Assembly (NCBI GenBank): GCA_951813525.2
Contig: CATOTJ020000002.1
Span: 196,954-260,953 of the forward strand
Length of the DNA stretch: 64,000 nt
DNA from: an uncultured Limibaculum sp.
GTDB taxonomy: Bacteria; Pseudomonadota; Alphaproteobacteria; Rhodobacterales; Rhodobacteraceae
Reading direction: 5' to 3'
The position numbers and the translations under genes were made by a program. The notes below the pieces were generated by a model. It had not been told where the DNA came from. It ran no database searches and worked only from the letters and a program-made list of their open reading frames with translations. Positions 11,173 to 42,109 of the stretch are shown piece by piece (positions within the stretch are counted from its first letter, which is position 1; each line of letters begins with the position of its first letter).

Positions 11173-11287
11173 CCTTTACGCGCAGAGGTCTCGCGCCTCT
11201 GAACGTCCGAAATTGGCGCACACCGGCTGGCCATCGTCGATCACATCTACATCCATTGTGGGGGCAACAGCGGGCGGGCCATTACGG

Positions 11288-11545
11288 AGCGGGTGGACGG
11301 CCTCTGCTCCACCGGCGTCGAAATGCAGGTGTCATCATCTGTGAAAGAGGCGCCACCCGATGCAAGTCGCCACAATCGGCCTCGACCTGGCAAAAGATGT
11401 TTTCCACGTTCACGGAATTTCTGAGTCTGTAAAGATCGGATTCAATCGGAAGATTAAACGCAAGGACTTGCCGAAGTTCTTTAATCGACTGCCGAAGTGC
11501 ACCGTTGGCATGGAAGCCTTCTTATCAGCACATCACCGGGGCCGA
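11288..11545 (+). pseudogene. IS110/IS1111 5' remnant (left end plus ~60 codons of transposase)
   Basis: MQVATIGLDLAKDVF, paralogous to 38603..39622; left-end IR gtggacggcctctgc. Confidence 0.85.
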
Positions 11546-28937: not shown

Positions 28938-29484
28938 CCGGCTGTTCGTTCCGCGTGCAGCGAAGGTCCGATTGCGGTCCGCCAGCACCTGTAAGATGAA
29001 AGTCTTCAATCGCGCAGAGATCCCAGTAGTCCACGACGGGCGAAGGTCCGGTTCTCCCTTGAGACTTCCAATCTTCCGCGATGCAGCATTCGTCAACAAG
29101 GGCTCCAACCAGACATCTCTTGCAGCGCAAGATCGCCGATTCCGCACGCTGCTTCCGTCGTCAGTTACGGCCCGCACCGGCCATTTGCCGGTGTCGTTGA
29201 TGCTGCGGTCGCGTCCCCGTTTCCCGCCATTCGCCGCGGCAGCGAAATCTTACTTGGTGACTTCGGCAGGTGTCGGGGACAAAGCGGAAATAGCGGGTTT
29301 AATAACCACGATTCCGCAAGTCGGGGATGATGTAAAAAAAGTCATTCCAGAACTGAATCAGTATTGGTTGAACACGTCACCAAAGACAATTTGTTCCAGT
29401 AAGGGCACTAAGGATGATATAATCCCCTCCAGAGACGGTTAAATAAACAGAAAATGTTCACCAATTTTTTATCGGAGACATAAT

Positions 29485-31119: not shown

Positions 31120-31260
31120 ATTCTGAGCCCACCTCGATGCGGCCTCGGGTTGAATGGGCTCTAACCCGTCATCCATTGCACCGCCGGGATCTGATGTAAT
31201 GTCTCCTTGCCAACGTCTGGTTGGCAGGGTGGATGGGAGCTTCAACTCGGAAGATCCATC

Positions 31261-31893
31261 ATGCAAACACCAAACTTACCCGCCATTCGCCCTCAGCGCC
31301 CAGCCTGGAATAAGGGACGGCTGGTTGGTCAGAAACGCCCGTTGATGCCGAAACATGTCTGGGCCATCCGTGTTCGGCTTGAGATCGCAGAAAACCACCG
31401 TGACCTTGCCTTGTTCAACACCGCGATCGACAGCAAGTTGCGCGGACGCGATCTCGTGCGGCTCCAGGTGGCTGACGTCTTTGCAGCAGGACAAGTCAAG
31501 GAACGAACCTCGGTGCTGCAGAGTAAAACGCAGAAACCGGTCAAGTTCGAGCTGACCGAAGGCACGCGCAAATCGATTGCGCAGTGGCTGAAGGACCCTC
31601 GGATGACCGGGCAGGAGTTCCTATGGCCGGGCCGGTTCCACGAACCCGTGCATATCTCGACGCGCCAATACGCTCGTCTTGTCCGAGATTGGGTCCAGTC
31701 GATCGGCTTGGAGCCAAGCGCATTCGGCACGCATTCAATGCGCCGTACAAAGGTCGCGCAGATCTATCGTAAGACTGGGAATTTGCGAGCGGTGCAACTT
31801 CTGCTCGGACACACAAAGATGGACAGCACTGTTCGTTACCTGGGTGTCGAGCTCGAAGATGCACTGGCAATTTCCGAAGCCGTCGAGCTCTGA
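31261..31893 (+). CDS. Minimal tyrosine recombinase (210 aa, catalytic domain only)
   Basis: SKLRG (R), HSMRR (HxxR), LLGH, TVRY; N-terminal WNKGRLVGQK motif. Confidence 0.9.
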   Translation: MQTPNLPAIRPQRPAWNKGRLVGQKRPLMPKHVWAIRVRLEIAENHRDLALFNTAIDSKLRGRDLVRLQVADVFAAGQVKERTSVLQSKTQKPVKFELTEGTRKSIAQWLKDPRMTGQEFLWPGRFHEPVHISTRQYARLVRDWVQSIGLEPSAFGTHSMRRTKVAQIYRKTGNLRAVQLLLGHTKMDSTVRYLGVELEDALAISEAVEL

Positions 31894-31900
31894 AGAGGAT

Positions 31901-31923
31901 GGGCCGCTCGTTGTGGGCGGCCC
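31901..31923 (+). terminator. GC hairpin after recombinase
   Basis: GGGCCGC-N9-GCGGCCC; weak U tail. Confidence 0.45.
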
Positions 31924-33019: not shown

Positions 33020-33788
33020 GACCATTCGCCTTTTGATGGAGCATTCAAAGGGTTACGCACCTACGCTTACGACGCATGACGGTTCATGGTACTTCCCGCC
33101 AGTAGGCCGGACGGCAGCTTTCGGGGGAGGATCGTGAATCCGAGTTTCATGCTCGACGGCGGCTTTGTCCCGATTGTGTGAATTCGCTTCGCCCTGACCT
33201 TCGCACTCGCCGCGAATGTCGGCAAACGAGAACGCGACCGCAACGATCAGAGGAGTTGGCAAACCGCAGTAACGAACCGTCCACGCTTTTCGACCATGTC
33301 CGCTTCCTGCGCGTTGCTGACGTTTAACGCGTGCTCGTCGAACTTCTGCTCGCCAGAAATGTCGGAGATAAATCTGAGCGTCAACACTCACGCTGTCGGA
33401 TGTCTGCTCTAGCAGTTCTACCAAGATCGGTGTTGCGGAGCAGCGAACGGCTCCTTCCCGCCAAACTCCCATAATGCGCCACGGTTTTGCGAACATTTCG
33501 CACACAATTTTACCCAGTTTCGGCTCATTCCCGATCATACTTGTGAAGGTCTGGTTAGCCGTTCGGTCGATCGCGCCGCTCGAACAGTGCTCGCGCCACC
33601 AAAAGCACATCGGTATGCTCAAAATCCTCGAGTTCTTCCCTGAATGGACTGGACTTCAGCGTCACGTGAAGCGTGAGTGTTCTTGCGCTGAGGGGCGGGC
33701 ATTCCCCCGACCTGGCACAGGCCCGGAAAACCCGGGCTCGTCTCAGTAGGAGCAGCGGGATTGGCCCGCGGCCGACACGGAGACGAAC

Positions 33789-37200: not shown

Positions 37201-38361
37201 CGGCTGCGTTCCTCCAGATTGTTCAGCGCCTTTAACGCCTTGCCGTCATCCCTCGACCGACGGGCGACGCGAAGCATCGATGAGAGGTGGTTCGGCAGTC
37301 GACGAAGCCGTAAGACCCCTTGCCCGGCAGTCGTTTGCGAAGCATAGTGGCGAGAGGGGCCCTACCGGAGTCGGCCTCTCTTTGGTTGTTTCATCGGCAC
37401 TTTTAACCCCACCCGCTGCCACAGGCGCAATGCCGCCGATTTTGTGAGCAGCATCGATTGCTGTCGGCCCATATGGCCGTGAGTGTGGCAATTCAGCTTA
37501 GGCGTAGATTGCTGGAACTTATTCGGGCATTTTACTACCCTCGGATTAATGTGATTTCGATTCCAAGCCCGAAGCTGGATATTATAAACAAAATCATCGT
37601 AACGGGCAGCTTGGGCCAGTTGCTCTTAAGTAAATAAATATCGTATATAATAAACACTATTTTTGGGAGAAAAATTAGAATAAAAATATGTATAGCTACT
37701 GGTAGTTTTTAAAGCGCGCAGAAATAGATCTTCGAATTCTAAGCCAAGAATCATTATAACGCTATTATATAGTTGGATGATATGGTCATTAAAGTAGAAA
37801 GACAAATATCAAATACGTTAAGTGCAAAAACAGTAAGAATTGTCGATAACAGATCAATTTTTGGTAGCCTCTATATCGGCCATTCTTAGCTTAATAATCC
37901 AAGTTCAGCGAGGAGAAATTCTTGGTATTAATGCGAACCCACTATTTTCAAGCGTCGGGGCGCCTAAATTGGGCGCATCCTCGAATATCGGTAGATGATC
38001 GATATTGACCCAACCAGCTTTCTTTGTCCCAGGACGTAGTGCGACAAAACAGGAAACGATCCTTGTAGAATTGTCGTGGCCCATACGATCGTCAATTCGC
38101 CCAACAATACGCATCAACGGTCGTGCTGAATCTTTCGCGCTTCCGACCCAAATATGACCTGTTTCAATTTTTGTCAGGCCTCGCGAATTAGCAGTTTCGC
38201 CCAGTCTATAAAATGCCAGTTCAATCTGCCGAGCATATTTGGTCGAACGTCAAACAAAGTCCCGGTTGCCGACAAATTCCAAGCCAAGGATTTCGCGGTT
38301 GAAGCGATTGGCGGCAAACCGGCGCGCAGGCGCAACAATCTGGGCATTGCTGTACGTCGTG

Positions 38362-39704
38362 TGTGGATGGCTCCTGCATTGCAAGGACGAATTTGTCTAT
38401 CGCGCGTCGTGTCAGTACAGTCGTGTGTCCGGCCTGTTCGCGCGGTGACATGTAGTCTCCGCTGGCCTTGATGATTTCCGCAGGCAAGGCTCCATTCGGC
38501 AAAGCGAACTCGGAGGTCCGCGGACATTCCCGGAGTGTCCTGGCCTTTGGCTGACTATGCGTGCATCAGTTCATTCGTCTTGCATCTCGTGGGCGGCGCG
38601 TATCAGAACGCAGGCGCCCGGTATTCAGTTCCTTTCGCAAGCAGCGCCCAGATCACCCTGGCTGTCTTGTTGGCCATGGCGACGGTGGCGAGCCTGAATG
38701 GCTTCTCGGCGATGATGTTTGCGGTCCAAACGTCCGTGCGTTCGGGATGTGTTCGGGCGAGCAGCCCGCGGGAGGTCATGCCAGCGACCAGTAGCCTTCT
38801 GATGTATTGATCGCCTTTCTTCGTGATTTTACCTAGCCTCTCTTTACCACCGCTTGATCGGTTCAGTGGTGTGAGTCCCAACCAAGCAGCGAGGTCCCGG
38901 CCTGTTTTGAATTGCTTCGCGTCGCCGATCGTCGTGACGATCGCTGACGCTGTGATTGGGCCAACACCAGGGATTCTCTGAAGTCGGCGACAGCGTTCGT
39001 CGAGAAAGGCATGCTGCTCGATTAGTCGAGTGTAAACTTCGGCGCGTTGGTTCACGGCGAGGATATGGTCGCACAGGCTCCAGATCGTTGGCAGGCTTAC
39101 CTCAGGCAGACCAGCGTGTTCTCCGTCAATGAACTCCTGCGCGAACTTCAGCGTCGCTTCAATTCCCGTCGGCAACACGTGGCCGAACTCCCGAAGAACG
39201 CTTCGCACCATATTCGCGAGCTGGGTGCGTTGGCGAATGACTAAGTCCCGTGAGCGGTGAACCGCCAGGAAAGCCTGCTGATCTACCGTCTTTATCTTCA
39301 CAAACCTCATCGTGGGGCGGCGAACCGCTTCGCAGATGGCCTCCGCATCGACTGCGTCCGTCTTTCCCCGTTTGACATATGGCTTCACATAGAACGCGGG
39401 CATCAACCGGACATCATGTCCAAACTTACTGATCTCTCGGCCCCAGTGGTGTGCTGAGCCGCAAGCTTCCATGCCGACAACACATCTTGGCAGCCGGTCA
39501 AAGAACTTCAGCAAGTCCTTGCGTTTGATCGTCCGATTGAATGCAACCTCACCGGACTCAGAAATTCCGTGAACTTGGAAAACATCCTTGGCCAGGTCGA
39601 GGCCGATTGTGGCAACTTGCATGGGGTGGCTCCTCTCTTGCAGATGATGACATCTGCACTATGGCGCATTGCGACGCCGTTGGAGCAGGAGCCATCCACC
39701 CCAT
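38362..39704 (-). mobile_element. IS110-family, IS1111-subgroup element (ends approximate)
   Basis: Perfect 15-bp sub-terminal IR GTGGATGGCTCCTGC at 38363..38377 and 39685..39699; long 3' non-coding end. Confidence 0.88.
38603..39622 (-). CDS. IS110/IS1111 DEDD transposase/recombinase
   Basis: GLDLAK, MEACG, KTDAVDAEAI, PGVG, GLTP..SSGG motifs. Confidence 0.95.
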   Translation of the reverse strand: MQVATIGLDLAKDVFQVHGISESGEVAFNRTIKRKDLLKFFDRLPRCVVGMEACGSAHHWGREISKFGHDVRLMPAFYVKPYVKRGKTDAVDAEAICEAVRRPTMRFVKIKTVDQQAFLAVHRSRDLVIRQRTQLANMVRSVLREFGHVLPTGIEATLKFAQEFIDGEHAGLPEVSLPTIWSLCDHILAVNQRAEVYTRLIEQHAFLDERCRRLQRIPGVGPITASAIVTTIGDAKQFKTGRDLAAWLGLTPLNRSSGGKERLGKITKKGDQYIRRLLVAGMTSRGLLARTHPERTDVWTANIIAEKPFRLATVAMANKTARVIWALLAKGTEYRAPAF

Positions 39705-39765
39705 CCGCAGAGGGCCGTTCACTTCGGCTTTCATGTCAGACCTTGGCAATCTGCGGACGGCGAAA

Positions 39766-41412
39766 TCATTCCTCGATGGGAACGATGATCGGTTCCGGCG
39801 CTGGTTTGCCGAGGATGAGATCGGAAGCCTTTTCTGCAATCATCATAGTGCCGGCTGCCAGGTTGGCAGACATCATCCTTGGCATGATCGATGCATCGAC
39901 CACACGCAGCGCATGGACACCGTGGACCCGCAGCTGATCGTCGACCACCGCGACCGGATCAGTTATGGGTGACATGCGGCAGGTCCCCATCAGGTGGAAA
40001 GTGCTGGTCCCGGTTTGGCGGGCCATATCCAGCAATTCGTCGTCAGTCTGAACGTCGTCACCTGGCTGTTCCTCACGGTCAATGAATGGGGCCATTGCTC
40101 GGGTGTGGATCAGGCTGCGCCCCAGGCGCATCGCGGCCACGACTGCGCGCCGATCGGCCTCATGCGCCAGGTAGTTTGGCTGAATGGCCGGTTTCTGAAA
40201 CGGGTCATCTGATCTTGAGCGGACGAAACCGCTGCTCTCGGGCCTGTGCTGCCAGGCCGCGAGCGTGCACCCCGGTGCTTCAGCCAGCACGCCGTGGCGG
40301 GTGGGATCGAAGCTTGCGGGTGTGAAGATGAACTGCAGGTCATTGCTTTTCGCCGCAGGATCCGAGTGCCAGAAGCCATAGACCATTGACGGATTCAGAT
40401 CGACGATGCTTTTTGCGCCGAAGACGTATTTCAGAATCTCCCAACCAAGGCGTGGGCCGCGCGAGATCTCGTTGAGTGTCTGGATCCCCTTTACTCGCGC
40501 CACGACGCGCGGCGCGATGTGGTCGCGCAAGTTTTCGCCGACGCCGGGCAGGTGGTGAACGGTCTCTATCCCCAGATCGTTCAACAGGTCGGTCGGCCCG
40601 ACGCCCGAAAGCTGCAGCAGTTGCGGTGAGTTCACCGCTCCGCTTGACAGGATCACTTCGCGATTGGCGCGCACGTGCTTTGGTGTGCCGCCGCGGCCGC
40701 CTTGGGAGTAAGCGACGCCGACGGCCTTTTTACCCTCGAAAAGCACCTTCGTCGCGAAAGCCCCGGTCACGACCGTCAGATTTCGCCGCGACCGCGCCGG
40801 TCGTAGAAAAGCACGCGCAGTGCTGACCCGGCGCCCGCCGCGCGCAGTCCGCTGGACATAGTTGATGCCCTCTTGCCGCGCGCCATTGTAGTCGGGATTG
40901 CGCGGGATCCCGAGTTCCGCAGCGCCGGCGATAAACGCGTCGGCGAGCGGATGCGTATAGAGCAAGGCCTCGACGGTCATCGGACCTTCGCGGCCCCGGA
41001 ACACATCGTCGCCCTGGCCAACCCAGCGTTCGCATCGCTTGAAATAAGGCAGAACGTCCGCGTATCCCCAGCCATGATTGCCCAACTGCGCCCACAGGTC
41101 ATAATCCAGGCGCTGGCCACGGTTGTAAATCATGCCGTTGATTGAACTGGATCCGCCCAACGTCTTGCCGCGAGGCACGGGGATCCGCCGCCCGTTAGTA
41201 TTTGCGCCTGGGTCCGCTTCGTACATCCAGTCGATTCGAGGGTTGCCAAGGTTCTTCACAAATCCCGACGGCAGATGGATATAGATGCTTCGATCACGAG
41301 GCCCCGCCTCGAGTAGGCAGACAGTATGCTTTCCACCCGCAGAAAGCCGGTTGGCGAGAATGCATCCGGCCGAGCCGGCACCGACGACAATATAGTCGAA
41401 CGTGTCTGCCAT
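39766..41412 (-). CDS. GMC oxidoreductase (choline dehydrogenase-like)
   Basis: GAGSAG, PRGKTLGGSSSING, GENLRDH, FHLMGTCRM, LRVVDAS. Confidence 0.9.
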   Translation of the reverse strand: MADTFDYIVVGAGSAGCILANRLSAGGKHTVCLLEAGPRDRSIYIHLPSGFVKNLGNPRIDWMYEADPGANTNGRRIPVPRGKTLGGSSSINGMIYNRGQRLDYDLWAQLGNHGWGYADVLPYFKRCERWVGQGDDVFRGREGPMTVEALLYTHPLADAFIAGAAELGIPRNPDYNGARQEGINYVQRTARGGRRVSTARAFLRPARSRRNLTVVTGAFATKVLFEGKKAVGVAYSQGGRGGTPKHVRANREVILSSGAVNSPQLLQLSGVGPTDLLNDLGIETVHHLPGVGENLRDHIAPRVVARVKGIQTLNEISRGPRLGWEILKYVFGAKSIVDLNPSMVYGFWHSDPAAKSNDLQFIFTPASFDPTRHGVLAEAPGCTLAAWQHRPESSGFVRSRSDDPFQKPAIQPNYLAHEADRRAVVAAMRLGRSLIHTRAMAPFIDREEQPGDDVQTDDELLDMARQTGTSTFHLMGTCRMSPITDPVAVVDDQLRVHGVHALRVVDASIMPRMMSANLAAGTMMIAEKASDLILGKPAPEPIIVPIEE

Positions 41413-42109
41413 GCGTTTGCTACATATGTCCCCTGCAAAGCGCCATGATAACGACTTTAGCTCTATTCATCTCGCGACACAGAGATCAATCGGTACCCGT
41501 TTCGCGCAAACTCGCCATTTGAAACCTCGCTATCTAAGTCACTATGGTCTCAGTTTTCAACGTTGAATGGCGGCAAACCGAACGCTGCAGTGCAGCATTC
41601 AGGGCGCATGCCACAGTCCGCCGAGGGCCGTCCGCTTTGTCGTCAACTCCGGACTTAGCTTACCGCGGATCGGTCAACCAGCATCCGCCAAAAAATCGGA
41701 CATTTGAAGAGGTTTGATGGTTGCGCGCCAGTGGGAGTTTTGTGCCTGCATCCATTTTAGGACGAGAGCCCTTGTACCGCCTTGAACCCAGTGCGACCAG
41801 TCGGCGGCGGTGAGCGGGTGCGGCCAAAGATTGGATCGCAATTCGTGACAAGGGAACGGGTGGTCACGAAGTAACAAGAGATGAAGTAGAAAGCATGGGC
41901 CTCCGGTTCGGTTGAATTGGCCAAGGTAACGGCCGCACCGCTCCGGCCCGGTATCGGGCGGCTCATTGGATCGAGACTTCAATTCCGGATTGATCGTAAG
42001 ACTGATAAGTGCCCGGATGCGGGGGAGCCCCGGAAAATTCGACTTGAGCCGACCCGATCATGTCCGGCACATTTCCAATGTTCTTAGAACCTGAACCTGG
42101 GAGGTACGA

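Follow-up and report, generated by a model that had tools for sequence, protein, structure and literature searches.

A probable two-loop guide RNA at the 3′ end of an IS1111-group insertion sequence from an uncultured Limibaculum, and its apparent preference for a repeated ~95-nt element

Introduction

An insertion sequence of the IS1111 group carries a long non-coding stretch downstream of its transposase gene in the window analyzed here, the whole 64,000-nt stretch of contig CATOTJ020000002.1 (positions 196,954 to 260,953) from an uncultured Limibaculum sp. This locus raises two questions: does the non-coding end encode a guide RNA, and if so, which DNA would that RNA select? Recombination guided by RNA was established for IS110/IS1111 elements in 2024 and is not new as a principle. 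The bridge RNA of IS621 was described by Durrant et al. 2024 (PMC11208160) and Hiraizumi et al. 2024 (PMC11208158), and ISEc11, ISKpn4, ISPst6 and ISPa11 are IS1111-family seekRNA elements (Siddiquee et al. 2024, PMC11187229). We compared the window copy with the other copies in its genome and with related loci from genomes and metagenomes, and find strong support for a bridge or seek RNA of the published IS1111 kind, as judged from sequence comparison.

Boundaries of the element and its empty site

The insertion sequence occupies positions 38360-39706 on the minus strand (1347 bp) and reads GGATGGG...CCACACA in the orientation of its transposase gene. The genome contains four copies that are 100% identical and have different, unrelated flanks. 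Alignment of the four junctions delimits a constant stretch from CGGATGGGG to CCATCCACACA, with no target duplication except one shared G. Terminal extensions of 7 nt (left) and 3 nt (right) lie outside the 15-nt sub-terminal inverted repeats (Table 1); the IS1111 convention for element ends is likewise a 7-nt left and a 3-nt right extension (PMC11187229), and the repeats fall within the 7-17 bp that, together with short extensions, characterize the group.

The initial annotation had measured the non-coding stretch between the transposase stop and the sub-terminal repeat exactly (225 nt, 38378-38602), as compared with 85 nt upstream of the gene. The empty site it proposed was two bases off on each side and took in the IS bases GG and CA, as comparison of the four copies reveals; its ends lay two bases too far in because the repeat had been taken as 13 nt and not 15. 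After correction, the empty site for the window copy reads ...GGCCCTCTGC^CGACGTAC, where the caret marks the insertion point (shorter form AACGGCCCTCTGC^CGACGTAC; longer form ...GAACGGCCCTCTGC^CGACGTACAG...). The base 3′ of the right end varies (C, G, T, A) across copies and relatives and therefore belongs to the target. The left-end GG moves together with the element, both in the local copies and in relatives.

The 8/12 match counted earlier between this site and the flank of a decayed copy (11285) is correct as a number, and its last two positions (GG) are IS bases rather than target. The GGCC-N5/6-C likeness between the two is nonetheless genuine, and flanks of relatives show it again. No empty site was found in 40 related genomes; these relatives are too divergent (flanking genes at 65-70% identity).

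The only long open reading frame of the element encodes a transposase whose length lies inside the IS1111 range of 330-350 aa. It contains an N-terminal DEDD, RuvC-like domain (PF01548, E 1.9e-14) and a C-terminal domain (PF02371, E 8.3e-26). Residues D9, E52, D89, D92 and S256-S257-G258 are invariant in an alignment with 13-14 relatives at 66-88% identity. The C-terminal GL-P----S(T)G motif is present as LGLTP...SSGG and aligns with the transposases of ISCro4 and IS621, to which the protein has a weak match in the C-terminal domain (IS621, E 3e-7).

Additional relatives in the same genome are one 65% paralogue and one decayed 5′ fragment. In copy B (G000 C1:1038544-1039708) the transposase gene is broken by a 1160-bp element, itself present as 29 identical copies in the genome.

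Table 1. Positions of the element, its RNA and its target sequences in the window
Feature	Position	Strand	Remark
Decayed 5′ fragment of related IS, preceded by GGGCCATTAC	11285-11545	+	80% identity
Intact member of ~95-nt element	29165-29253	+	nhmmer E 3.5e-21; profile seed; inverted-repeat pair I1
Intact member of ~95-nt element	33186-33282	-	profile seed
Right part of split target element (CGACGTACA ... GTTTGCCGCCAATCGC-N7-GCGAAAT)	38279-38359	-	
Right sub-terminal inverted repeat GCAGGAGCCATCCAC	38363-38377	-	15 nt
Predicted bridge/seek RNA module, target-binding loop then donor-binding loop	38411-38565	-	covariance model R1, 124 bits, E 1e-26
Putative donor loop, 3′ side, ACACACGAC: last 5 IS nt + core + first 2 flank nt	38420-38428	-	
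Putative donor loop, 5′ side, AAAUCAUCAA; CAUC can pair with left-end GATG	38468-38477	-	model position and CAUC conservation
Putative guide identical to target top strand, CUUUGC + CG, then AAUGGAG	38490-38504	-	
Hairpin separating the two target guides (GCGGAC / GUUCGC), 18 nt	38504-38521	-	helix 3: 3/5 pairs compensatory
Putative guide pairing with target top strand, GGAAUGUCC; reverse complement GGACATTCC = core + 7 nt right flank	38522-38530	-	
Transposase gene, 339 aa	38603-39622	-	stop codon 38603-38605
Left sub-terminal inverted repeat GTGGATGGCTCCTGC	39685-39699	-	15 nt
Left part of split target element (GAACGGCCCTCTGC)	39707-39722	-	junction = profile position 16
Weak member of ~95-nt element, upstream of 548-aa gene	41565-41632	-	nhmmer E 0.069

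A conserved paired scaffold downstream of the transposase gene

We compared 80 related loci from genomes and 80 from metagenomes. Alignment of their downstream non-coding regions revealed a conserved scaffold with short variable blocks between its conserved parts. Six proposed helices place 93.6% of cells in standard pairs across 20 sequences, while a control in which the 3′ partners were slid by one to three columns leaves at most 45% paired. Thirteen pairs have compensatory changes, with both sides changed, and the covariation score of 0.364 (0.200 in shuffles) was reached in 0/500 shuffles.

A covariance model built from this alignment places the RNA downstream of the transposase gene, matching 82 times across the 80 loci from genomes and in 72 of those from metagenomes, which gives about 150 relatives with the same RNA behind the transposase. 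In the Limibaculum genome the model matches all four copies and the 65% paralogue, and finds no stand-alone copies of the RNA. A scan of 37800-40000 against Rfam 15 (E up to 1) matched no family and returned one chance snoRNA-like match.

Folding the single sequence, the check proposed earlier, was uninformative: its minimum free energy is no better than that of shuffles (z -0.61), so the evidence for structure is comparative and not thermodynamic. The reading of the non-coding end as a guide RNA is strongly supported instead by two kinds of covariation across relatives, that of the paired scaffold and that of guides with flanks described below.

Two arrangements depart from the single downstream module: one distant relative has three tandem RNA modules downstream of its transposase gene (L053:2606-3443), and in another an additional module precedes the gene (L073:1196-1351).

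Variable segments follow the flanks and ends of their own element

The variable blocks contain the candidate guides (Table 1). We scored them in 41 non-redundant elements, with blocks placed by covariance-model alignment, against the flanks of their own element and those of the others. The first target guide matches its own core plus 7 nt of right flank at 7.34/9 positions and the flanks of others at 4.76/9 (0/20,000 permutations). The second matches its own 7 nt of left flank plus core at 6.27/9 and those of others at 4.73/9 (0/20,000 permutations). Both results hold inside each of two subgroups. Several relatives are naturally retargeted, among them those with GGTCATTCG (L027), GGACAAAGC (L028) and GGACTTTCC (L038), each 9/9 with its own flank.

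The donor side behaves similarly. In 28 non-redundant relatives, the 3′ segment of the donor loop (the nine bases after GGCCGG) matches the right junction of its own element at 7.93/9 compared with 6.23/9 for others (0/20,000), and its five IS-end bases alone give 4.93/5 compared with 3.96 (0/20,000 permutations). In the window copy this segment is 9/9 identical to the right junction. Covariation and pairing of the donor-loop CAUC with the left end were judged by eye only. The AAUGGAG that follows CUUUGC + CG in the second target guide resembles the left IS end, ATGGGG.

Along the RNA from 5′ to 3′, the match to the top strand comes before the match to the bottom strand, and both include the core; IS1111 seekRNAs are described with this order and with such an overlap in the target. 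The fit of the window copy is imperfect: its site reads CTCTGC against the guide CUUUGC (5/6), and beyond the core it agrees with the right-hand guide at only 4 to 5 of 7 positions. The core itself is mismatched at its first base. Both donor-side RNA segments read CG (38497-38498 and 38421-38422), while the left junction is GG in every local copy and in nearly all relatives with a CG-type RNA. Relatives with AG or TG in the RNA carry A or T at the left junction.

The window copy splits a member of a repeated ~95-nt element

The initial annotation proposed that the element targets a family of dispersed palindromes. A profile built from five genome copies of a repeated element of ~95 nt, with the IS site left out, identifies about 20 members in the genome. 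In a genome-wide nhmmer search the 74 bases directly to the right of the IS (38279-38352; C2:235232-235305) are a member at E 8e-7. When the two flanks of the window copy are rejoined, they match ~90 positions of the profile at E 7.9e-12 and meet at its position 16. The profile also matches seven metagenomic relatives, whose junctions all fall at position 16, in the same orientation. From the score of the rejoined flanks and the shared junction position we conclude that the window copy splits a true member of the element.

The palindrome claim is supported in kind for the window copy. The other three local copies (B, C and D) are inserted in unique sequence where no member is recognizable and only a short motif is shared. 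Since these three lie outside recognizable members, the ~95-nt element appears to be a preferred and not an obligatory target.

The flanks of metagenomic relatives point the same way. About 30 of 42 independent metagenomic sites share a 60-nt flank consensus comprising the same arm and the downstream hairpin: ...acGGCCC-N3-GC^xG-(A/C)C-(A/G)TTC, ~12 bases, then GATGCTGCGGTGCAGCCC. The two intact members in the window continue from this arm into a second similar arm and then ATTCGC-N7-GCGAA. In the member at 33186-33282, the second arm (33200-33242, minus strand) reads GTTTGC-CG-ACATTCG and matches the guides at 13/15, better than any occupied site; this near-perfect site, at 33223, is empty.

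Absence of a target family had been suggested by blastn of the four rejoined flanks (no repeats >19 nt), a suggestion that the profiles overturned. Searches with the regular expression GGCCC-N4-C-xG-AC and with a full palindrome around GGCC gave no enrichment over shuffles. A literature search on the ~95-nt family returned nothing specific.

The strongest competing account accepts the seek or bridge RNA and takes the target to be a short degenerate motif (~TGC-xG-AC-N-T), so that the window copy would lie in the repeated element by coincidence. In favor of this account, no element is detectable around copies B, C and D, and these copies match the guide-predicted 15-mer at 9 to 11 of 15 positions. 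The four local sites share little besides tGC-GG-AC.T, and in a genome scan near-ideal 15-mers occur at only ~2x the expectation from composition, the best of them being unoccupied. Against it stand the ~90-nt fit of the window site to an independently derived element profile, the occurrence of relatives from other samples at the identical profile position and orientation, and a metagenomic flank consensus that extends far past the guide footprint. We therefore regard an incidental element as unlikely, though with a real share of the probability, and favor the ~95-nt element as the preferred target.

A proposed mechanism

The anatomy, the paired scaffold that relatives conserve, the way in which guides co-vary with flanks and element ends, and the nature of the sequence that was split are observed here; on them we build a model in which transcription, RNA binding and chemistry are taken over from published IS1111 and IS621 work. 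Very probably, the 3′ end encodes a two-loop guide RNA with which the transposase inserts the element, preferentially into an arm of the ~95-nt element.

The bridge (seek) RNA would be ~155 nt long, transcribed from the minus strand from ~38565 to 38411, and would contain two internal loops. In the first loop, GGAAUGUCC would pair with the top strand of the target over the core and the seven bases to its right, and CUUUGC, beyond a small hairpin, would bind the bottom strand on the left side of the core. The second loop would match the two element ends through ACACACGAC and the CAUC-containing stretch. Once it carries this RNA, the DEDD transposase would join the circularized element to the target. 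Strand exchange at the dinucleotide would yield insertion in one orientation with no target duplication. The preferred target would be one arm (GGCCC-N4/5-C^xG-AC-ATTC) of the ~95-nt element, of which the window copy occupies a split example.

It is quite improbable that the window copy is an inactive relic whose likeness to its site is historical only. Such decay is visible elsewhere, in the broken copy B and the fragment at 11285-11545, and the window site fits the guides imperfectly; however, the three copies that no other element interrupts show 100% identity along their 1.35 kb, keep the reading frame open and retain every conserved residue. Identical uninterrupted copies with an intact frame point to recent movement, and the element is apparently an ordinary, active one.

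That the conserved end works as DNA, through transposase-binding sites or a folded single-stranded end, is less probable still: the sub-terminal repeats and end-like motifs in the region and the unexceptional single-sequence fold would suit it, but compensatory changes maintain the six helices, with G-U pairs on only one strand among them, the variable segments follow the target that flanks each element, a behavior not expected of a donor-DNA binding site, and the homologous region of ISEc11, ISKpn4 and ISPa11 gives an RNA that purifies together with the transposase and is required in trans (PMC11187229).

Relation to known guide-RNA elements

By its described features, the element resembles the IS1111 seekRNA elements (PMC11187229) in its DEDD transposase, sub-terminal repeats, 7-nt left extension and downstream non-coding region, and also in orientation-specific insertion, with no duplication, into a repeated structured target. 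Known targets in that group are attC for ISKpn4 and REP for ISPa11 (PMC11187229). It differs from them in its guide sequences and in its target, a ~95-nt element of marine Rhodobacterales that is absent from those papers; guides and target are read here from sequence alone.

Like the IS621 bridge RNA (PMC11208160, PMC11208158), the predicted RNA would have one loop for the target and one for the donor, and in each of them both strands about a dinucleotide core would be read; its segments equal to junction products resemble the handshake guides of IS621. Unlike in IS621, the RNA lies at the right end rather than the left, the element has long inverted repeats, a multi-branch context surrounds the donor loop, and the first core base is unmatched between RNA and junctions; the protein match is weak and confined to the C-terminal domain (E 3e-7). 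Two loops at the right end, with donor-matching bases in a multi-branch context, have been described for IS1111 members (Durrant et al. 2024, PMC11208160).

As reported (PMC12288879), ISPpu9 and ISPpu10 of Pseudomonas putida are IS110-family elements that lie in repeated extragenic palindromes and carry a small RNA gene downstream of the transposase, much as here. ISPpu9 is reported to have extra stand-alone copies of its RNA gene, unlike the present genome, where the covariance model detects none.

The comparison adds a natural series of ~150 elements from Rhodobacterales and other Alphaproteobacteria, built on one scaffold, whose guides can be read against their own flanks. This series amounts to a worked guide-to-target code for one IS1111 lineage, including several naturally retargeted members. 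It also identifies the preferred landing site of the lineage, a repeated structured ~95-nt element that is otherwise undescribed.

IS4321 and IS5075 are IS1111 members that insert into the 38-bp terminal repeat of Tn21-family transposons. They take one position and one orientation inside the repeated sequence of another mobile system, as the present element may do in the ~95-nt element, although the target differs.

A possible cassette system and neighboring elements

We consider it possible, though on balance doubtful, that the ~95-nt element is the recombination site of an undescribed gene-cassette system with a minimal tyrosine recombinase (31120-31923). The presence of two element copies around a 548-aa gene fits this idea. 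If the cassette reading is true, the IS1111 lineage would correspond to those IS1111 elements that seek out attC sites in integrons; jointly with an IS5-family element inserting at a GGCC six bases off, it would single these sites out as a common landing pad, and its guide RNAs would offer a handle for locating and studying such sites across Rhodobacterales.

The 548-aa gene (39766-41412, minus strand) has element copies in the same orientation on both sides, the weak member at 41565-41632 and the IS-split copy just past its stop codon. The arm motif CCCGCCATTCG occurs at 31279-31289, where it falls within the opening codons of the small recombinase gene, and also in a second copy of this gene, on contig 3.

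The IS5-family element is 1506 bp long and encodes a 453-aa transposase with DUF772 and DDE_Tnp_1 domains. It has 19 copies in the genome, none of them in the window (G000 C1:110524-112030 and 18 other places), and is also found at L106:1104-2465. Its insertions mostly have a GGCC duplication, and the consensus of its 37 distinct flanks is GGCCnAnAGCnGACnTTnG on either side. The first arm of the ~95-nt element houses several of these copies, 6-7 bases upstream of the IS1111 insertion point.

The 65% paralogue (G000 C1:112026-114079) lies ~600 bp from a copy of the ~95-nt element that the IS5-family element abuts. Its own flanks match its own guides poorly, and just upstream of it is an unoccupied target-like sequence, GGCCCCATTC-GG-AC.
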